From sequence record MH383160: DNA of 64,000 nt, one strand, 5' to 3'. Made by a program: the position numbers and the translations under genes. Source of the DNA: Escherichia phage UB. The stretch's first letter is position 1. Every line of letters begins with the position of its first letter. Shown one piece after another: positions 11,753 to 53,193 of the stretch. A model generated the notes under the pieces. The model had not been told where the DNA came from. It made no database searches and saw only the letters and a program-made list of their open reading frames with translations.

Positions 11753-12523
11753 TTAAATTTTCTCAAGGAACAAGTTTTCGCACTGTTCTTCCCAATCGTA
11801 TGGGTTGTTGTTATATACTGCCGAAATCAACAGTGGCATACGCAGTGAAGGTGAACGAAGAGAATCTTCGTGCTTCAACATCCAGTTCAGAATTGCTTTA
11901 CTACCATTACGGTTAATACCCTTAGATTCTAAAATGTTAGTCTGATTCATCACGTTCTCAATGTGAATCATGATATCGCTTTTGGTCTGAATCTGTAAGT
12001 CAACGTATACAGAACGAGACATAAGAGCAGCATAGTGAGCAGACATTTTAGTTTTAGCTTTAGCATCTAATGCTAAATCTTTGTTCGTAATGAATACGAT
12101 GCGACCATTAAAATCAAAGCTATTAGGAATACCGTTAGTGGTTAAGTACTTAGAGCTAGTCATATAAGACACAGTACGCTTACCACTATCCAGCACTGCT
12201 TTGAGCAGGTTCATACCGTCTTCTGAATCAAAGATGCTGTCCATATCATCCAGTACTAATACGTTAGTGCTGTGACGATTCTTGTACAGAACTTCGTACA
12301 GAGCAAGAGTAGTCATCTTGCCACTGATAGTAGCTACGTTCCATTCTGCTGCGTCATGAGCTTTCTGGAGGCGTTTAGACAGGGTGTAAGTTTTACCAAC
12401 ACCAGGTGCACCGCTGACAACCATACTTTTTACAGTACTGCTATCGTCGAGCAAACACTCAAGAGCAACCATCATGGAGTTGAAGTTTTTCTGGATTTGA
12501 ATGCTACGTGCTTCTCTGGTCAT
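11753..12523 (-). CDS. P-loop NTPase (AAA-like ATPase)
   Basis: Walker A GAPGVGKT and Walker B VLVLDD. Confidence 0.7.
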   Translation of the reverse strand: MTREARSIQIQKNFNSMMVALECLLDDSSTVKSMVVSGAPGVGKTYTLSKRLQKAHDAAEWNVATISGKMTTLALYEVLYKNRHSTNVLVLDDMDSIFDSEDGMNLLKAVLDSGKRTVSYMTSSKYLTTNGIPNSFDFNGRIVFITNKDLALDAKAKTKMSAHYAALMSRSVYVDLQIQTKSDIMIHIENVMNQTNILESKGINRNGSKAILNWMLKHEDSLRSPSLRMPLLISAVYNNNPYDWEEQCENLFLEKI

Positions 12524-12551: not shown

Positions 12552-12581
12552 ATTATAGCAAAAAGGGTTGACCGAAGTCAA
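12552..12581 (-). promoter_or_regulatory. sigma70-type promoter (TTGACT-N18-TATAAT), -35 inside terminator hairpin
   Basis: Minus strand reads TTGACTTCGGTCAACCCTTTTTGCTATAAT. Confidence 0.5.
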
Positions 12582-12584
12582 CAC
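12560..12584 (-). terminator. UUCG-loop intrinsic terminator (degenerate copy)
   Basis: GTGTTGAC-TTCG-GTCAACCC + TTTTT on minus strand. Confidence 0.5.
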
Positions 12585-12949: not shown

Positions 12950-14413
12950 TTATAAAATTACTTCACCAAAAATACCATTAATATCACGTTCAATAATGTA
13001 CTCACCTTCATGTTTGGCTAAGAATTGTTTTATTACTTCAATTACATTTTGACGATGTATGTTGTTGTATGTTTCAGTATAACCATCACCTCTGTTATAA
13101 TAGCCAATATTTTTATGTGGTTTTCCACACAATGCAACAGTATGAACTTGTGTTTCTAACTCCGATGCCAAAAATCCCCCTTCTTCGGTGTGAAAAAAAA
13201 TAACTAATACATTAGTCCAAAAATTATCAACACCATACTCTTCTAAAAAAGATTTGTTAATTTTTTTAAGTCGGGGTTTGATACTGTTACCCTGTTGGGT
13301 TATTCCGAATTTATCCGATTCGTTTGTTTGATCAACGTTCATATATGAACGTGTAGGTTTGTTTTTCTTAAACCCGTACTCATTATACATTGAAAAACCA
13401 TATTCAAAACTGAAAAAATCTGCAATATTAATTTTTTGTTGAATTGAACTATCACTACGAGAATATAAAAACACACTACGGTAATTAGTGTATTCACCGT
13501 CCCAACCAATAAATGTAAACGTCACTTCATCAGTTGAGCGATTACATAATTCTTTTTTAATTTGATATTCACGCTGTTCTTTTGTCCAACGAAACCCGCC
13601 AGTACAGCGACAACTTAAATGCCCCTGTTTGAGTGTGTGCATTTCTTGCTCAAATTCACCAGTACATAAACCATTTTTTGTATATTCATCGTTTGCACAA
13701 ATTGGACATGAGTATACAAGTTTACTAAATCTCCCATAATCATTAACTGTATCACTACGCTTGAACGTGGTCTTTGGATGAAACTTACCAGTATTCATTA
13801 TTTCGTTAATGTGATTTTCCAATCCGTTATTGCTTTCACGATGATACTGTTTCTTTCTTTCATTCCCACATTTAACACATCCATCATTTGTACCATTCGA
13901 TCCAAATAAAATACCATTTATAGTTGCACTGTTCATGAGTTCATCTGGGTGATGTTCACATACAAGAGTTGGTTTATATGTATTACTTTTAATTATACCA
14001 GTTGGAATTGATAATAATTTCTTTCCAGTTTTTGAAATTTTTCTTTCTATTCGAATAATATATTGATAACGAGTCCATTTTGGTATCTCACTACAACCAC
14101 ATGGAATTATTGAATTCAAATATGACGATTGTGCAATAATATACACACCCAAACCATGCAATTGAACATCATTTGCACAAATTTTACAAATTTTAAGATA
14201 GAACTTAGCTTTGGTCTTTGGATTTCGAATTAATCCCAACAGACTTTCATCACATTCTGTATTAGTATCCTGCTCCAATTGATCAAATGAATCAGGAATT
14301 GGCAATTGTGGATGCTTTTCACGAAGAATGAATAACGAAATTCTAAATGCTTCTTCACTTTTTGCCAAGCTTAATGCATTTTCAACTTCAATTGAACGAT
14401 GTACTTTATACAT
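12950..14413 (-). CDS. hypothetical Cys-rich protein (possible zinc-binding / nuclease-like)
   Basis: 487-aa ORF with several CxxC pairs; no confident family assignment. Confidence 0.6.
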   Translation of the reverse strand: MYKVHRSIEVENALSLAKSEEAFRISLFILREKHPQLPIPDSFDQLEQDTNTECDESLLGLIRNPKTKAKFYLKICKICANDVQLHGLGVYIIAQSSYLNSIIPCGCSEIPKWTRYQYIIRIERKISKTGKKLLSIPTGIIKSNTYKPTLVCEHHPDELMNSATINGILFGSNGTNDGCVKCGNERKKQYHRESNNGLENHINEIMNTGKFHPKTTFKRSDTVNDYGRFSKLVYSCPICANDEYTKNGLCTGEFEQEMHTLKQGHLSCRCTGGFRWTKEQREYQIKKELCNRSTDEVTFTFIGWDGEYTNYRSVFLYSRSDSSIQQKINIADFFSFEYGFSMYNEYGFKKNKPTRSYMNVDQTNESDKFGITQQGNSIKPRLKKINKSFLEEYGVDNFWTNVLVIFFHTEEGGFLASELETQVHTVALCGKPHKNIGYYNRGDGYTETYNNIHRQNVIEVIKQFLAKHEGEYIIERDINGIFGEVIL

Positions 14414-14722: not shown

Positions 14723-14752
14723 ATTATAGCAAAAAGGGCTGACCGAAGTCAA
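14723..14752 (-). promoter_or_regulatory. sigma70-type promoter, -35 TTGACT in terminator arm, -10 TATAAT
   Basis: Minus strand TTGACTTCGGTCAGCCCTTTTTGCTATAAT; leader near-identical to cassette at 16.0 kb. Confidence 0.55.
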
Positions 14753-14755
14753 CCC
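14731..14755 (-). terminator. UUCG-loop intrinsic terminator
   Basis: GGGTTGAC-UUCG-GTCAGCCC + UUUUU on minus strand. Confidence 0.7.
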
Positions 14756-14761
14756 TTTATG

Positions 14762-15121
14762 TTATTCTAAGTCACTCATAGTACTAATAGTTAATCCCAT
14801 TTCTTCTGCAATGTTGCATAGCAAACCAACAGCATTACGAAGAATATCAGTGTTGTCCACCGAGAATGATGAGTTTTCATTTACAGTTGAAGACTCAATG
14901 TAGTACTCAAAATAACGAGAAGTTGAACGCACAACTTTAACACCTTCATACTTCTGTAGTTCAGAGTTGATACGCTCGATTAGTGAATCTTCCAGTACTC
15001 GATAGTCACCATTCATTCCACGTTTCCATCCATCAGCAGGACGGAAATAAAAAGTTTTTGTACGTTGAATTGTTGAGATTGTTAGTGGGTTGTATTCTGC
15101 GATTTCACTTAAAGATGCCAT
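14762..15121 (-). CDS. hypothetical protein
   Basis: ATG with GAGGAA RBS; promoter just upstream. Confidence 0.6.
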   Translation of the reverse strand: MASLSEIAEYNPLTISTIQRTKTFYFRPADGWKRGMNGDYRVLEDSLIERINSELQKYEGVKVVRSTSRYFEYYIESSTVNENSSFSVDNTDILRNAVGLLCNIAEEMGLTISTMSDLE

Positions 15122-15227: not shown

Positions 15228-15422
15228 CTAATCCTCGCTGAAGACAACAATAAGGAATGACACGAACAATGCCGCATAACAAGGAGCTATCTTCATGTAC
15301 CACGGGACTTCATAATACCATGTACCCAATTCATCCCACGAAAAGAGTATACTCAAACCGAAGCCGATTAGCGATAGTACAATAAAAGAAATCCAGAAAC
15401 GCTTTGAATATACTAATAACAT
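15228..15422 (-). CDS. small membrane protein
   Basis: ATG with AAAGGAACA RBS; hydrophobic. Confidence 0.5.
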   Translation of the reverse strand: MLLVYSKRFWISFIVLSLIGFGLSILFSWDELGTWYYEVPWYMKIAPCYAALFVSFLIVVFSED

Positions 15423-15460
15423 GTTATGTTCCTTTGTGTAACCGAAGTCAACCCTTTCCT

Positions 15461-15976
15461 TTAATAATTATTCATTTCATCTTTGATTTGTTCTTCAATT
15501 TCGTCGAACATATCAGTACTAGATTCGTTCTTACTACTTACGTTCTGCATATCTTTAACGTACTGTGGACATTCAACATCAGTAAACTTATACCACGTAG
15601 GCTTCATCTGGAGCTTCTCAATCAAACGATCACGAGACATTTTAATCTCTGACTCCGTTGGTACGTAGTCATTACAAAACTCAGCAGGGAAGCCGCTAAT
15701 GTCGTTTACTTCAGTGTTTTGAATCTTCATACCACGACGCAGACATTCGTTGACAATATCAATATGACGCTTCTGTAAGTACAATAACTTGTTGTAGAAG
15801 AATGTTACATGACCTGAACCCAACAGGTAAGTACTGTTAATTTTGAAATCACGAACTCGCTTACGTGCTTGAACGTGTTTTTGTACAGCACCAAATACAC
15901 GTGGGAGTTCACGATATTCAGCCATCAGATGTTGGTCAGCAAGTTCTTTAACGTGTACTAAGTTAATGCGTGTCAT
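15461..15976 (-). CDS. denV: pyrimidine-dimer DNA glycosylase / AP lyase (T4 endonuclease V family)
   Basis: [47 protein letters not shown] matches T4 DenV from memory. Confidence 0.85.
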
Positions 15977-16004
15977 GTATTCATCCTCTCGTTTCGATGA
16001 AATG

Positions 16005-16034
16005 ATTATAGCAAAAAGGGCTGACCGTAGTCAA
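16005..16034 (-). promoter_or_regulatory. sigma70-type promoter in terminator-promoter cassette
   Basis: Minus strand TTGACTACGGTCAGCCCTTTTTGCTATAAT, then conserved leader CATTTCATCGAAACGAGAGG. Confidence 0.55.
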
Positions 16035-16037
16035 CCC
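16013..16037 (-). terminator. intrinsic terminator hairpin (CGUA/UACG loop variant), T-runs both sides
   Basis: GGGCTGAC-CGTA-GTCAACCC flanked by A5 and T6. Confidence 0.7.
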
Positions 16038-16444
16038 TTTTTTCTTTCAATTAAACATAATCTACCAGCATGTACCATGCGATGGTGATTAGAACAAAGA
16101 ATTACACACTTTCGAATTTCATCTTTGATAGATTCTCGACTTTTACTGAACATAGAACTTGGTGTATGTTCTTTGGTATTAGGTTCAAGATGATGAAAGT
16201 CTAAACATTCTGGATACTTCATCATGCAAATACTACAACCATAAAATGATTTAACTCTGGTCATGAAATCTTTATTTTTTCTTTTGATTTCTTCAAGTTT
16301 TTTTACATCAGTTTTTTTATTTCTGGTTTTCTTACTGGTAATATTACTACAACATTTGCATGTATTTCTTTGTTTCCCAGTATCACTTCTTATACCAAAT
16401 TCACTAATGTCTTTTTCAATATTACACGTGATACACTTCTTCAT
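16031..16444 (-). CDS. HNH endonuclease
   Basis: Cys-rich N-terminus plus HNH core ...DFHHLEPNTKEH...ILCSNHHRMVH. Confidence 0.75.
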   Translation of the reverse strand: MKKCITCNIEKDISEFGIRSDTGKQRNTCKCCSNITSKKTRNKKTDVKKLEEIKRKNKDFMTRVKSFYGCSICMMKYPECLDFHHLEPNTKEHTPSSMFSKSRESIKDEIRKCVILCSNHHRMVHAGRLCLIERKKG

Positions 16445-16746
16445 GGTTTAACCCATTTATTCAACAATTCACCCAACTTCACAATCTCATACCCATCCAG
16501 ATAGCCATAGGAACACTCAGGTGTTTCATAAGTTGAACCATCATGGATACCTTGACATTGGCTTTTGGAACGTTCAAGCAATCGTTGCAGTACTGATACG
16601 TCATCAAGAACGTAATACAAGTTAGCATATGGGTCCGTCACAATACAGTACTTAAACATGCCAAATGTATCAATCGATTTTTCAACCTTAGCAAATTGTT
16701 TCTTTTCTTTATTATACAATGCGTACATATTAATCTCCATAATCAA
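16441..16746 (-). CDS. hypothetical protein
   Basis: 101-aa ORF, start overlaps upstream stop. Confidence 0.55.
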   Translation of the reverse strand: MIMEINMYALYNKEKKQFAKVEKSIDTFGMFKYCIVTDPYANLYYVLDDVSVLQRLLERSKSQCQGIHDGSTYETPECSYGYLDGYEIVKLGELLNKWVKP

Positions 16747-17293: not shown

Positions 17294-17848
17294 TTATTTC
17301 AAAGAATCATAGTAAGCAGTGTCAAAGATTGGAGTCATAATAACATAGTCAATACGGTCAATGTAAGTTGAACTCCACATTTCTGGTTTGTCATATAACT
17401 GACGCTCGCGTTCATTCATACGAGTCAGTACTTCTTCCAATTTACTACGTGAATCCATCAATGTATTACTCGAACCATAAGTGAAGTACTCAGTCCAATG
17501 ATATTCATATTCAGTACTGATAGATTGAATAGTACCATCTTTGAAATGAGCTAAGGCATAACCTTTCTCTACAAAGTTATCAGGTGGAAGAACACCATCT
17601 GGATTAGTTTTCAATGCTTGTGCTAACTTTTCTTTAATTTCAGTTAACGTGCATACTGAACGAATGTTCTTCAGGTTTGATACTTGAAAATCACTGTACT
17701 TTCCAAAGAAAAAGACACGCCAATCTTTAGGTTCATTATCAGATACGGTAGCATCAGGGTGATGGGCGAGTAAACGAAGAAGGCCAGCTTTGTGACCGTT
17801 AATGTAGATTTCATGGATGTGGTTAGCAGTTTTCTTAAAAGTAATCAT
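17294..17848 (-). CDS. hypothetical protein
   Basis: 184-aa ORF with consensus promoter upstream. Confidence 0.6.
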   Translation of the reverse strand: MITFKKTANHIHEIYINGHKAGLLRLLAHHPDATVSDNEPKDWRVFFFGKYSDFQVSNLKNIRSVCTLTEIKEKLAQALKTNPDGVLPPDNFVEKGYALAHFKDGTIQSISTEYEYHWTEYFTYGSSNTLMDSRSKLEEVLTRMNERERQLYDKPEMWSSTYIDRIDYVIMTPIFDTAYYDSLK

Positions 17849-17924: not shown

Positions 17925-18320
17925 TCAAAATAAATTCATTTCATGTGCGTATTGTGGTTCAAGATAAGATAAGTTTTTGAAACTGTCTTTCAATTCTGCA
18001 TCATCTACGTACACAGTACCAGGTACATTCCCCATAGTGAAGCCAACCCAAACAGTCATGTTTCCAGTTCCTAAGCGGGGCATTGATAGCGTCCCGTCAG
18101 GTGAAACATCAAACGCTACACTAAAGTCATCCGTTACAACTTCCGAACCATTTTCCAGAATAATACAACCACGTTCTTTAAGCTTCTGAATGTGGATAGC
18201 AGCCTCTACAGCACGTTTAAAGTTATAATAAGACTCTTTATCCTCGAACATTGATTGTTTAACCAGACGCTTGTTTAGCTCGGTTACTTTGTGCATTTGA
18301 CGCATTACTTCAACTCCCAC
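17925..18320 (-). CDS. hypothetical protein
   Basis: 131-aa ORF. Confidence 0.55.
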   Translation of the reverse strand: MGVEVMRQMHKVTELNKRLVKQSMFEDKESYYNFKRAVEAAIHIQKLKERGCIILENGSEVVTDDFSVAFDVSPDGTLSMPRLGTGNMTVWVGFTMGNVPGTVYVDDAELKDSFKNLSYLEPQYAHEMNLF

Positions 18321-20619: not shown

Positions 20620-20649
20620 ATCATAACAAAAAAGGCTGACCGAAGTCAA
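20620..20649 (-). promoter_or_regulatory. promoter in terminator-promoter cassette (TTGACT-N18-TATGAT)
   Basis: Minus strand TTGACTTCGGTCAGCCTTTTTTGTTATGAT. Confidence 0.45.
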
Positions 20650-20652
20650 CCC
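20627..20652 (-). terminator. UUCG-loop intrinsic terminator
   Basis: GGTTGAC-UUCG-GTCAGCC + U-run. Confidence 0.7.
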
Positions 20653-26581: not shown

Positions 26582-26926
26582 TCAATACCATTCTTTAAAA
26601 CCATTAAGTTCGGCTACGTGAGTGATTATAACACATATAACATTCAGGTCAAGTATAATTTGATCATAATTTAATTTTATACGATCATCATTATATGCTC
26701 TAAAAACTACATCGTAATCAAAGAAATTTGCGTTTTCATCATTCATTGAAACGATTCGGTATCTACGTCTTCCATCTGTATTGAATATAGTTAAACACTG
26801 TTGAAACTTTCTCATTAACTGTTTAGATAGGATATTATAATATTCAATATCTTTTTGTGAATTACGTGGGTCATCAGGAAGATAGAATGAAACAAATTTC
26901 TTTAATTCTATTTGAGTTTTATCCAT
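26582..26926 (-). CDS. hypothetical protein
   Basis: 114-aa ORF. Confidence 0.55.
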   Translation of the reverse strand: MDKTQIELKKFVSFYLPDDPRNSQKDIEYYNILSKQLMRKFQQCLTIFNTDGRRRYRIVSMNDENANFFDYDVVFRAYNDDRIKLNYDQIILDLNVICVIITHVAELNGFKEWY

Positions 26927-27359
26927 ATATTACCTCATGTGTTTCTCTTTTACTTTGTCGGAACTCATCCTTTGCTTCCTTAACTGACATGATACGAACT
27001 AATTTAGCACTACCGCAATAGTACTGAACCTGATTACGACCAATGTCTACATGGTGGTCTGGAACTTCATATACAGATATAGCAAACCCAGCACGATGCA
27101 ATTTACCCAAGTCCATAGTGAAGAATCTGAACAAATCTTTCAAACTTTGACAACCAAATACCCATCCACTTTTGATTGAATAGATCCCATCCTCAGTTGG
27201 TTCAGGTTGGAATTGAGAAGGTGTAGTCATAAGCAAACGGTCAAATCCATTTTTAGTACTGTATCTGGTTGAATACCGTGCAAACGGACCTACAGTTCGT
27301 GCAGGATCTAAGTTAGGTTCAATGTAACTAAATTTAAGTTCAAAACGATATACATACAT
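26919..27359 (-). CDS. hypothetical protein
   Basis: 146-aa ORF, first gene after terminator-promoter cassette. Confidence 0.6.
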   Translation of the reverse strand: MYVYRFELKFSYIEPNLDPARTVGPFARYSTRYSTKNGFDRLLMTTPSQFQPEPTEDGIYSIKSGWVFGCQSLKDLFRFFTMDLGKLHRAGFAISVYEVPDHHVDIGRNQVQYYCGSAKLVRIMSVKEAKDEFRQSKRETHEVIYG

Positions 27360-27387: not shown

Positions 27388-27417
27388 ATTATAACAAAAA
27401 AGGCTGACCGAAGTCAA
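27388..27417 (-). promoter_or_regulatory. promoter in terminator-promoter cassette (TTGACT-N18-TATAAT)
   Basis: Minus strand TTGACTTCGGTCAGCCTTTTTTGTTATAAT. Confidence 0.55.
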
Positions 27418-27420
27418 CCT
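27395..27420 (-). terminator. UUCG-loop intrinsic terminator
   Basis: GGTTGAC-UUCG-GTCAGCC + U6. Confidence 0.7.
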
Positions 27421-48118: not shown

Positions 48119-48208
<90 letters not shown>

Positions 48209-48229
48209 AGAAGTAAGATAACCAACAAG

Positions 48230-48393
<164 letters not shown>

Positions 48394-48436
48394 ATTGACC
48401 TCTTTAGATTAAAACCCCCAGTTTTCTTCTTGAACC

Positions 48437-48534
<98 letters not shown>

Positions 48535-48553
48535 GCATACTCGAAGTACCTCT

Positions 48554-48668
<115 letters not shown>

Positions 48669-48703
48669 ATAAGCTACTGAATCGGGAATCACAACCTCCC
48701 CTC

Positions 48704-48955
<252 letters not shown>

Positions 48956-48967
48956 TTATAATACCTG

Positions 48968-49643
<676 letters not shown>

Positions 49644-49656
49644 TATATCATGTGAA

Positions 49657-49903
<247 letters not shown>

Positions 49904-49904
49904 A

Positions 49905-50421
<517 letters not shown>

Positions 50422-50439
50422 ATACCCAACTTTAATTAA

Positions 50440-50765
50440 AAAAATGGATGGTGACGCTTTTAAACGCCGCTGTTAATTCAGCTTTATAACCATCCGTTTT
50501 AACTTGCCTTTCGGCTACCTTGACGTGGGGCGTACAGGCTGCTAAAAGCAACTTCTGTAAACATATTTCCACGCCTTACCCTTTTAAATAAAAGTCCATC
50601 CGGTTTTCCAGTTTGGTGAAGGACTGTCACCTCTAGTTTCAACCTGCTAGTCAAGTAATAATTGCCTATCGTCCAATTATCAAACCCGTCTAGGTTAACA
50701 TTCACCACTTCCTAGAGTACCAGAGATCTTGTTCTGGATAGCATCGACGTAACTTACACCATATA
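50440..50765 (-). ncRNA. candidate structured non-coding RNA (unclassified)
   Basis: G+C-enriched ~330-bp block with many short inverted repeats; only ORF has an alternative start, no RBS and atypical codons; promoter directly upstream. Confidence 0.3.
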
Positions 50766-50774
50766 CGTCTGATT

Positions 50775-50803
50775 GTGGAATTCATTATATCAGTACTGAA
50801 CTA
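50775..50803 (-). promoter_or_regulatory. extended -10 promoter (TTCAGTACTGATATAAT)
   Basis: TGATATAAT with conserved palindrome in spacer; weak -35. Confidence 0.45.
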
Positions 50804-50992
50804 TTCATCAGTGCTCAAATAAATTGTATCAGTTTTACATTTATACTGAATACGATGATCAATAAACGTACCTTGTTTATAAAGATCTGCATTTTTTACA
50901 TCAGTAATGATTTCAACACCAACATATTGTTTAAAAAGAACTTCTGCTTCTGGATATTGTTTAAGAATTTTAATCAAATCTTTAGCTTTCAT
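50801..50992 (-). CDS. small protein, MKAKDLIK-family
   Basis: N-terminus MKAKDLIKILKQYPEA. Confidence 0.55.
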   Translation of the reverse strand: MKAKDLIKILKQYPEAEVLFKQYVGVEIITDVKNADLYKQGTFIDHRIQYKCKTDTIYLSTDE

Positions 50993-51022
50993 TTAATCCC
51001 ACTCGTTTATGTGTTAAGATAC

Positions 51023-51055
<33 letters not shown>

Positions 51056-51063
51056 CTTTTTTT

Positions 51064-51225
<162 letters not shown>

Positions 51226-51229
<4 letters not shown>

Positions 51230-51390
51230 GTTCGTACCATTATTTCAATAAAGAACCACGGATACGCTTCATGGTTTATAAGTTTATCGTATTCTGCTGG
51301 GTCTGACATGATTTCCCAATGATACTTTCTCCAGTTACCGAAACCTGCATATCTAAAATTAATGTCATTCATCCATTCTTCATGCGTCAT
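51226..51390 (-). CDS. small MTHEEW-family protein (54 aa)
   Basis: N-terminus MTHEEWMNDI. Confidence 0.5.
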
Positions 51391-51441
51391 GGTTTTAACC
51401 TTTAATTAAAATTATCATAGGCATAAATTTAATTACTATCA

Positions 51442-51984
<543 letters not shown>

Positions 51985-51998
51985 AATATTATATTTTA

Positions 51999-52070
51999 TA
52001 AAGGGCCGGAGAATCGAACTCCGATTGGATTCTTAGAAGGAATCTGTTTTATCCATTAAACTAGCCCCTC
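51999..52070 (-). tRNA. tRNA-Arg (anticodon UCU)
   Basis: Acceptor GAGGGGC/GCCCUUU with G-U pairs, D-arm GUUUAAUGGAUAAAAC, anticodon stem GAUUC/GAAUC loop CUUCUAA, T-arm CGGAGUUCGAUUCUCCG. Confidence 0.7.
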
Positions 52071-52113
52071 AGTACTAATAATTATATCACATCTTTATGT
52101 GATGTCCAATTAT

Positions 52114-52386
52114 TTATGATTCGGTTTCGGGATTAAATTTTATAAATTCATCTTTATATTCATCTTCAATCGCAATATCTTCTACTTCTTCAGGCCAAAT
52201 CGTAGTGTCTCCTTGATAAAAGCGATAATTATCAAATACTGCACTACGCGTTCTTCCCTGTTCCCAGCCAATCGTACAGTCATGATATACATCCCCACTA
52301 CTTGTACGAATACTAATGGTGTCTTGAGTTTCATAAAGAACTTCAATGCGTGTGTTACGATTTACGTTGAATTTTTCAAAATGCAT
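52114..52386 (-). CDS. hypothetical protein
   Basis: 90-aa ORF. Confidence 0.55.
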   Translation of the reverse strand: MHFEKFNVNRNTRIEVLYETQDTISIRTSSGDVYHDCTIGWEQGRTRSAVFDNYRFYQGDTTIWPEEVEDIAIEDEYKDEFIKFNPETES

Positions 52387-52439
52387 AATATTATCCTCAT
52401 CTAGAACCAGTGATAATCATTATATAATGAATTAATGAT

Positions 52440-52658
52440 TTATGCAAGTGTTTTAGATACACCGACACCAATAATTCCAGTGATATCGATATGGATATTG
52501 GCAAGTTGATTACTATCATATGGGTTTGTTTCTGTAATAACCAATGTTGTATCATTGACTAAAACCACAGTACCTTTTACACGATAACCATGTAGTAGTA
52601 CTTGAACCTCATCTTCAGGTTTTAATGATTGAATAACTTCAAATAAAGTTGTTTCCAT
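52440..52658 (-). CDS. hypothetical protein
   Basis: 72-aa ORF. Confidence 0.5.
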   Translation of the reverse strand: METTLFEVIQSLKPEDEVQVLLHGYRVKGTVVLVNDTTLVITETNPYDSNQLANIHIDITGIIGVGVSKTLA

Positions 52659-52673
52659 TTTTGTATTCCTTGT

Positions 52674-52856
52674 TTAGTTTTGATTATTTGACTTTCTAAA
52701 TGCCAGTTCGCATATAAACCAGGGTTTTCTGGTATCCAAAACATATGACCTGAAAAGATTTTCATCTCTTAATATATCATAATGTACCTGACGAATGCCA
52801 TTCCCAAAGCAGTCATGTTCTTTATGCTGTTTGGACATCCATTCTTCGTGTGTCAT
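52674..52856 (-). CDS. small MTHEEW-family protein
   Basis: Start set to ATG 52856 (MTHEEWMSKQ); listed 52874 start is TTG. Confidence 0.5.
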   Translation of the reverse strand: MTHEEWMSKQHKEHDCFGNGIRQVHYDILRDENLFRSYVLDTRKPWFICELAFRKSNNQN

Positions 52857-52857
52857 T

Positions 52858-53073
52858 TTATGTATCCAGTACAATTAAGTGCTGCATCTCTTCTTTTGTA
52901 AAGAAAGCACTGTCATGAACAATAGAACCAGTCTTATCAACTACATAGTACAGGTTTCCATATTGTTGAACATCAATTCCGTCAATTTCAATTCGTGGAA
53001 AATTTTGGACAATACAGTCTGCACCGAAAACCTCACCAAAAAAGTTTCCTGCTGGATTGATAATGACTTTCAT
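52858..53073 (-). CDS. hypothetical protein
   Basis: 71-aa ORF. Confidence 0.5.
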   Translation of the reverse strand: MKVIINPAGNFFGEVFGADCIVQNFPRIEIDGIDVQQYGNLYYVVDKTGSIVHDSAFFTKEEMQHLIVLDT

Positions 53074-53091
53074 ATTAAATCACCTTTATTG

Positions 53092-53193
<102 letters not shown>

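Follow-up and report, generated by a model that had tools for sequence, protein, structure and literature searches.

The 64,000-nt stretch of the genome of Escherichia phage UB analyzed in this study (sequence record MH383160; termed “the window” in the following) contains a gene, denV, whose predicted product of 171 amino acids (aa) is of the type of T4 endonuclease V (DenV), a pyrimidine-dimer DNA glycosylase/apurinic-apyrimidinic (AP) lyase. On its 5′ side, denV is preceded by a Shine-Dalgarno-like sequence, a composite hairpin/promoter cassette, a free-standing HNH endonuclease gene, and a homologue of gene 216 of phage 121Q; a half cassette and a small hydrophobic open reading frame (ORF) follow on its 3′ side (Table 1). 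Over 3.5 kb around denV, the DNA is 93–97.5% identical to that of the top-matching Asteriusvirus jumbo coliphages, which have genomes of 347–386 kb (JP4, vB_Ec-M-J, E9.1, 121Q, SP27, PBECO4, phAPEC6, slurp01, and others); nucleotide identity to JP4, 121Q, and further records is 97%. As set out below, the locus in all likelihood carries a functional denV gene belonging to a 121Q/PBECO4-like jumbo coliphage of the genus Asteriusvirus; denV would be an old resident of this genome and the adjacent HNH gene a separate selfish insertion.

Table 1. Features of the denV locus and of other parts of the window (positions refer to the 64,000-nt stretch)
Feature	Position	Strand	Remarks
denV coding sequence	15461..15976	-	ATG start; 171 aa plus stop; begins MTRINL; predicted T4 endonuclease V-type pyrimidine-dimer DNA glycosylase/AP lyase
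C-terminal extension of DenV (residues 133-171)	15464..15580	-	variable Ser/Asn-rich linker and conserved acidic terminal peptide
Shine-Dalgarno-like GAGAGG	15985..15990	-	8 nt 5′ of the denV ATG; direct reading of the sequence
Composite hairpin/promoter cassette	16005..16037	-	GGGTTGACTACGGTCAGCCCTTTTTGCTATAAT; directly upstream of denV
Half cassette	15442..15460	-	AGGAAAGGGTTGACTTCGG; directly after the denV stop; left half only, no hairpin folds
Next full cassette downstream of the denV module	14723..14755	-	
Further cassette copies	12552-12584, 20620-20652, 27388-27420	-	
Cassette cores	~21736, ~24177		
Free-standing HNH endonuclease gene	16031..16444	-	137 aa; flanked by the gene-216 homologue and the promoter cassette of denV
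121Q gene 216 homologue	16441..16746	-	PHROG 8563; upstream neighbour
121Q gene 218 homologue	15228..15422	-	64-aa hydrophobic ORF; downstream of denV
487-aa ORF, putative endonuclease	12950-14413	-	
NrdC.10-like protein	11753-12523	-	
MotB.2-like protein	26919-27359	-	
Six tRNA genes	48129-53171	-	among small ORFs

The denV gene and its product

A phmmer search of PDB sequences identified T4 endonuclease V (2end) as the best match of the denV product (E = 1.3e-53), and the matches across the whole PDB were T4 endonuclease V entries only. Residues 1–131 align gap-free with residues 1–131 of the 2end chain, 84 of the 131 positions (64%) being identical. Colinearity stops at residue ~131, and the protein is 33 aa longer than the T4 enzyme (138 aa). 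It matches the Pfam family PF03013 (Pyr_excise) with 56.4 bits (cut-off, 23; E = 4e-15) and PHROG 1183, “endonuclease V N-glycosylase UV repair enzyme” (UV, ultraviolet), at 1.3e-58, while NCBIfam contains no model matching it. The similarity is far beyond chance and the alignment to T4 DenV is significant, confirming the initial annotation of the locus, which had described a T4-type DenV with near-colinear similarity including the N-terminal catalytic region.

In the T4 enzyme, residues Thr2, Arg3, Arg22, Glu23, Arg26, Arg117, and Lys121 are known to have catalytic or DNA-contacting roles. All seven are found at the same positions in the protein of phage UB. In an alignment of 71 sequences, most of them, including Thr2 and Arg3, are invariant and the rest nearly so, and the N-terminal ~30 residues are almost invariant across the family. 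The first codons, ATG ACA CGC (MTR), would place Thr2 in the position required for the role of its α-amino group as nucleophile after loss of the initiator Met. An AlphaFold2 model computed with the 71-sequence alignment as input showed a mean predicted local distance difference test (pLDDT) score of 90.7 and was superimposed on 2end by Foldseek with an E value of 1.3e-15, a target-normalised template modelling (TM) score of 0.94, and a root mean square deviation of 1.3 Å over 133 columns; the predicted fold is the compact all-alpha fold of T4 endonuclease V (PDB 2END, 1VAS). Besides sequence, active-site residues, and predicted fold, the two systems share a small gene and an early-type promoter. 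They differ in their genomic setting: T4 denV belongs to the Straboviridae and has ipII and vs.8 as neighbours, neither of which is present in the window, whereas denV of phage UB resides in a ~350-kb Rak2-like jumbo phage.

By homology with the T4 enzyme, DenV would scan duplex DNA and flip out the base opposite a cyclobutane pyrimidine dimer. Once Met is removed, the free α-amino group of Thr2 would act as the nucleophile, assisted by Glu23, and the glycosyl bond of the 5′ pyrimidine would be cut; the resulting Schiff-base intermediate would then nick the backbone by β-elimination, and base-excision repair of the UV damage would begin. Judging from its sequence, DenV of phage UB is intact and almost certainly functional.

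That 121Q-like and other Rak2-like jumbo phages carry denV is not new: the gene is annotated in the GenBank records of sister genomes and mentioned in comparative papers. Gene 217 of phage 121Q and EO157G_2000 of phage SP27 code for the same 171-aa protein (99.4% aa identity), annotated as endonuclease V. Both loci resemble the window in gene length, downstream genes, and promoter cassette; the upstream HNH insertion is missing in 121Q and SP27, but otherwise the gene is the same. For the related phage CBB, “UV repair endonuclease V” has been listed as one of the proteins with homologues in T4 (PMC5259590), and T4 endonuclease V was reported to be present in a subset of jumbo-phage subgroup 2.2 (PMC7824862).

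Descent of denV and its relation to the HNH gene

Homologues of DenV were detected by tblastn in 1100 of 50,697 phage records (~2%), with identities of at least 80% in 45 phage records, and a protein search yielded 1325 clusters. The statement in the initial annotation that UV-damage repair genes are uncommon in phages is thus valid globally, but not for T4-like Straboviridae and Rak2-like jumbo phages, in which denV is common and has been noted before (PMC5259590, PMC7824862). Among jumbo-phage proteins, identity to the protein encoded in the window ranges from 96% down to 66%, in genomes of 345–386 kb, a size range that refers to those contigs long enough to tell, many intermediate matches being located on short metagenomic contigs. 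DenV of RaK2 (Alcyoneusvirus) shows 81% identity, that of a 371-kb metagenomic contig 70%, and those of GAP32 and CBB 67% and 66%, respectively. The DenV proteins of T4-like phages share 60–67% identity with that of phage UB, and none exceeds ~67%. In a neighbour-joining tree, the jumbo-phage DenVs cluster together, adjoining the T4-like group. The assemblage of jumbo-phage plus T4-like sequences was monophyletic in 60 of 60 bootstrap replicates, the jumbo-phage sequences together with those of 50–112-kb metagenomic contigs in 50, and the jumbo-phage sequences alone in 36. Mean DenV identity is 75.5% within the jumbo-phage group and 75.0% within the T4-like group, as compared to 60.2% between the groups; in view of the similar within-group identities, the jumbo-phage lineage, as measured by DenV, therefore equals the T4-like one in age.

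The surroundings of denV are partly conserved beyond the genus. RaK2 and Klebsiella phage KP13-7 have homologues of ORFs 17294..17848 (44% identity) and 17925..18320 (36%) on the 5′ side of denV, with order and orientation preserved; the gene-216-type ORF has a homologue (35% identity) upstream of denV in KP13-7 only, and on a metagenomic jumbo-phage contig an nrdC.10-like gene is still located downstream of denV. While the DenV proteins of Asteriusvirus and Alcyoneusvirus are 81% identical, their syntenic neighbours share only 35–44% identity. The ratio of nonsynonymous to synonymous substitution rates (dN/dS) of the DenV core is 0.07–0.29 in comparisons with eight relatives; for the ninth, CBB, dS was incalculable. 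The separate jumbo-phage lineage, the conserved neighbours in Alcyoneusvirus, and the low dN/dS values indicate that denV has long resided in the Rak2-like jumbo phages, where it is passed on vertically and maintained by selection, rather than being a recent import; a recent acquisition is not supported.

Alternatively, denV might have been transferred recently from a T4-like (Tequatrovirus) phage, both partners being coliphages able to co-infect. The 62–66% identity of DenV to T4-like DenVs would be in line with such an event, considering that the other two ORFs of the window with T4 homologues show identities of 38–39%, and so would the weak monophyly of the T4-like DenVs in the tree (17 of 60 bootstraps). 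This scenario is nevertheless very improbable: even the closest T4-like DenV does not surpass the ~67% mark, the DenVs of four jumbo-phage genera and of the 371-kb metagenomic contig cluster and are as diverged as the T4-like DenVs, the gene order around denV is shared by Asteriusvirus and Alcyoneusvirus, and the high identity is explained by strong constraint, as exemplified by the almost invariant N-terminus. In an outlier test for horizontal transfer, in which all ORFs of the window were compared by tblastn with the whole T4 genome, matches were obtained for three ORFs, too few to call DenV an outlier. Besides DenV, only the NrdC.10-like protein (38% identity to T4 over 239 aa) and the MotB.2-like protein (39% over 54 aa) have T4 homologues. 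The usable conservation contrast is that between DenV and its syntenic neighbours in Alcyoneusvirus.

The ORF between the gene-216 homologue and denV matches PHROG 2255 (“HNH endonuclease”) at 1.8e-31, in agreement with the HNH endonuclease noted earlier next to denV; no match was found in Pfam or NCBIfam, and its confirmation came from PHROGs. The motif CxxC...HH...CxxxC-N-HH...H is present, comprising C70/C73, H84-H85, C113/C117, N119-H120-H121, and H125. An alignment of the window with 121Q and JP4 revealed that the HNH gene is a clean ~413-bp indel relative to 121Q, bordered on one side by the stop codon of the gene-216 homologue and on the other by the hairpin/promoter preceding denV, and that the denV DNA beyond the indel is nearly identical in all three phages. 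Near its 3′ end, the gene-216 homologue contains a 2-nt indel, such that its product comprises 101 aa in the window (121Q and JP4, 89 aa) and its stop codon overlaps the HNH start (ATGA); EC.P1 has the same form.

The state of the site was compared in the window and 13 Asteriusvirus loci from GenBank; the loci from IMG/VR were dereplicated and included one Asteriusvirus. Seven of the 14 loci contain the full-length HNH gene (the window, JP4, vB_Ec-M-J, fEgEco12, WPEC3, EC.P1, and ph0011), three an in-frame internal-deletion remnant (E9.1, slurp01, and phAPEC6), and three lack it (121Q, SP27, and UE-S1), while CMSTMSU carries an unrelated filler of ~340 bp instead. The remnant consists of 28 codons, in which MKKC is joined to MILCSNHHRMVH... 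(MILCSNHH...), and is located beside an intact denV gene in each of the three phages. It apparently arose between short AAGTGT repeats and represents a decaying homing-endonuclease gene; remnants were located at positions 1503–1628, ~1205–1285, and ~3151–3231 of the fetched loci L093, L095, and L098, respectively. denV occupies this site in 13 of the 14 loci. The exception is ph0011, where the HNH gene and the hairpin/promoter cassette are followed by unrelated genes and denV is found ~3.4 kb further on; the insert contains ORFs of 160, 136, and 401 aa (L088 2010–2492 (-) and neighbours). Moreover, the full HNH gene co-occurs with long-tail as well as short-tail denV alleles (see below). Full-length HNH proteins of at least 92% identity are encoded in nine phage records, and a further seven match at 80–90% identity, which by extension from the three inspected cases are presumably remnants. 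Outside the genus, the nearest relatives of the HNH protein are those of GAP32 and FelixO1-like phages (39–48% identity), and no HNH match was found beside denV in five fetched loci of Alcyoneusvirus, CBB, GAP32, and a metagenomic jumbo phage.

Since the HNH gene occurs in full, remnant, and absent states while denV stays in place, and since the two are separated in ph0011, HNH and denV segregate independently. The initial annotation had suggested that denV, sitting next to an HNH endonuclease gene, was acquired as a mobile unit. The two genes are indeed adjacent and co-oriented, and the region is rich in homing-endonuclease-like genes, such as the 487-aa putative endonuclease and its alternatives in JP4, WPEC3, and phAPEC6. 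However, a joint acquisition is contradicted by the clean junction in the three phages that hold denV without HNH, by the remnants next to intact denV, by the HNH gene of ph0011 that runs into unrelated genes, by the combination of HNH with both types of denV alleles, and by the remoteness of the nearest extra-genus HNH relatives together with the five other jumbo-phage denV loci without an adjoining HNH match; we attach hardly any probability to it. The pattern is one of invasion, decay, and loss and marks the HNH gene as an independent selfish insertion, in the manner of free-standing homing-endonuclease genes.

With the free-standing homing endonucleases of T4-like phages (mobA-E, segA-G), the HNH gene has in common that it is a small intergenic gene by a conserved DNA-metabolism gene, that it is polymorphic among close relatives, and that degenerate copies exist. 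In contrast to these, it belongs to PHROG 2255 and has its nearest relatives in GAP32 and FelixO1-like phages instead of among the T4 Mob proteins. In part of the population, it has entered the intergenic space on the 5′ side of the denV promoter, and some of the genomes already show its decay. In analogy to the seg and mob genes of T4, its location would probably be explained by a cleavage target in the highly conserved denV (or gene 216). About 1 kb downstream of denV, the 487-aa ORF contains a CapR homology domain (Pfam, 2.2e-23) and is assigned to PHROG 681 (“endonuclease”). The equivalent site harbors a 1119-bp “homing endonuclease” gene in JP4, a 1551-bp endonuclease gene in WPEC3, and an 1887-bp gene annotated as “exonuclease ABC C subunit” in phAPEC6, and looks like a second hot-spot for selfish nuclease genes.

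Hairpin/promoter cassettes and transcription

The cassette directly upstream of denV combines a predicted sigma70-type promoter, matching 11 of 12 consensus positions (TTGACT, 18-nt spacer, extended TG, TATAAT; -10 element at 16005–16010), with a terminator-like hairpin (-20.7 kcal/mol; z = -4.9) that contains the -35 hexamer and is followed by a U-run. Allowing up to three mismatches, this cassette occurs in five copies in the window, all on the minus strand, with none expected; the repeated element reads GGGTTGACTWCGGTCAGCCCTTTTTGCTATAAT, and the free energies of the hairpins range from -11 to -21 kcal/mol (z, -4.2 to -6.1). Near-consensus sigma70 sites (at least 11 of 12 positions) number 32 on the minus strand of the window and one on the plus strand, compared with ~2.5 expected from shuffled sequences. 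From ~8.2 kb to its right end, the window has almost exclusively leftward ORFs; those at positions 33..8222, at its left end, run rightward. The previous assignment of denV to an early block is thus a reasonable inference, given the strand bias of sigma70-like sites, the site directly upstream of denV, and the leftward small ORFs, and it is likewise reasonable to assume that this block is transcribed by the host RNA polymerase. With a strong predicted sigma70-type promoter of its own inside a terminator-like hairpin, denV would probably be expressed early by host RNA polymerase along with the small membrane ORF downstream. Co-transcription of this 64-aa ORF with denV is probable since no terminator is located between them; in the fetched loci, the ORF was seen only with long-tail denV alleles.

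The cassettes resemble the promoter-early stem-loop (PeSL) elements of T4-type phages in being repeated sequences of ~33–50 bp that consist of a strong sigma70 promoter and a G/C-stemmed terminator hairpin, and in their location between small ORFs of a plastic region, at the breakpoints of indels and replacements. They differ from PeSLs, where the -35 hexamer is positioned next to the hairpin and not within it, and they occur in a Rak2-like jumbo phage. PeSL cassettes have been described for the T4-type phages RB49/phi1, PST, and nt-1 (PMC2839356, PMC4122927), and promoter and terminator activity as well as mini-circle formation were shown for RB49/phi1 only (PMC2839356). In fEgEco12 and EC.P1, a full cassette is present at the position of the half cassette, followed by a different gene, and a recombination breakpoint therefore lies inside the cassette; in ph0011, the cassette joins the HNH gene to foreign genes. 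In these three phages, comparison of the sequences places the breakpoints of recombination or replacement within cassettes.

Considering that denV is preceded by a full cassette and directly followed by a half cassette, that breakpoints fall inside cassettes in fEgEco12, EC.P1, and ph0011, and that long-tail and short-tail alleles differ en bloc in the 3′ part of denV and the genes beyond it, denV itself might be regarded as a PeSL-type cassette moved by homologous recombination between the repeated cassettes, its position reflecting shuffling rather than descent. The mechanism is documented in T4-type phages (PMC2839356, PMC4122927). Nevertheless, we consider this explanation unlikely for denV, whose neighbours are constant in distant genera; the swapped parts are the neighbours and the 3′ tail, but not denV, neither mini-circles nor duplicate copies of denV were seen, and the tail peptide is found at one place per genome.

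Elsewhere, the window contains six tRNA genes among small ORFs (Thr-TGT, Asn-GTT, Met-CAT, Ser-ACT, Arg-TCT, and Gly-TCC), of which the Ser tRNA has the unusual anticodon ACT.

The acidic C-terminal tail of DenV

T4 DenV terminates in WYKYYGKAIYA, 7 residues past WYKYY, whereas DenV of phage UB continues for 39 residues past WYKFT, forming an acidic extension; compared with the T4 enzyme, the isoelectric point shifts from 9.4 to 6.5. Neither T4 DenV nor the alleles of 144/145 aa in sister phages have this extension. Its net charge of -8 cancels that of the DNA-binding core (+7), and it lowers the calculated isoelectric point from 9.5 to 6.5. AlphaFold2 predicts one helix at residues 138–169 (pLDDT, 70–87). 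The tailed protein occurs in a form of 171 aa and one of 158 aa, the latter resulting from a 13-residue linker deletion; the tail-less proteins of 144/145 aa are those of slurp01, phAPEC6, WPEC3, CMSTMSU, and RaK2. Salmonella phage SD-2_S15 codes for a DenV of 242 aa that past residue ~135 is fused in frame to a homologue of ORF 14762..15121; a deletion evidently removed the tail together with the 64-aa ORF and the beginning of the gene after it.

The linker part of the tail varies freely, dN being about equal to dS. The last ~14 residues, by contrast with the variable linker, hardly differ among Asteriusvirus, the Mimasvirus phage XbC2, and metagenomic relatives with cores that are 69–72% identical; the DenV protein of XbC2 comprises 179 aa and ends in ...DDEYEDVERQIKEEMNNY (fetched locus L099 460–999 (+)). 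The consensus of the terminal peptide is [YF]-[ED]-[EDN]-[IV]-E-x-Q-I-K-[DE]-E-M-N-N-Y-COOH. A tblastn search of the phage collection with a 32-aa query (E ≤ 10) detected the tail peptide nowhere beyond DenV C-termini, at one place per genome. The presence of a conserved terminal peptide on a variable linker suggests a partner-binding or autoinhibitory motif. Acidic tails with aromatic ends are known from T7 gp2.5, T4 gp32, and the bacterial single-stranded DNA-binding protein (SSB). By analogy, we tentatively propose, as one possibility among others, that the tail might be an undescribed functional add-on module of DenV, used either for docking of the glycosylase to a conserved partner in the replisome or in repair or, by folding back onto the DNA-binding face, for tuning of non-specific DNA scanning.

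Several observations weigh against the view of denV as a functional, early expressed, and long-resident gene. The WYKYY stretch of the T4 enzyme (residues 128–132) is replaced by WYKFT, in which W128, Y129, and K130 are kept, but Y131 is changed to Phe and Y132 to Thr. This aromatic stretch matters for the activity of T4 endonuclease V; across the jumbo-phage clade, WYKF/WYKY variants are usual. T4 endonuclease V is known, in the textbook model, to scan DNA electrostatically, and an acidic tail could weaken this scanning. The early timing of denV expression is deduced solely from promoter consensus. Given that the T4-like DenVs were monophyletic in only 17 of 60 bootstraps, the deepest branching order of jumbo-phage and T4-like sequences is not settled by neighbour joining, and DenV may have been exchanged in ancient times between the ancestors of the two phage groups. 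A hint as to the HNH cleavage target could be seen in single-nucleotide polymorphisms at nt 178 and 187 of denV, possible traces of a homing site or co-conversion tract, which track the presence of HNH or its remnant versus neither in 12 of 13 genomes; in this small, phylogenetically non-independent sample, however, the association carries too little weight to be more than a lead. On account of its unusual acidic tail and the WYKFT sequence, denV might even be taken for a decayed or repurposed relic devoid of glycosylase activity, but this is barely credible, as all catalytic and DNA-contact residues are kept, the dN/dS values are low, and an intact ORF with its own ribosome binding site and promoter is found in dozens of genomes.

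The finding of denV in itself adds little, the gene being already annotated in GenBank and mentioned in comparative papers. What requires correction is the reading of its neighbourhood: because denV has long been conserved in this lineage by purifying selection and the HNH gene is a selfish element that inserted independently, the locus does not illustrate the carriage of a repair gene by a mobile element. Should the tail prove to regulate scanning or to recruit a partner, DenV of these phages would offer DNA-repair enzymologists an interesting natural variant. PeSL-like cassettes at breakpoints in a jumbo phage outside the T4 family would extend the proposed mechanism of modular gene shuffling.

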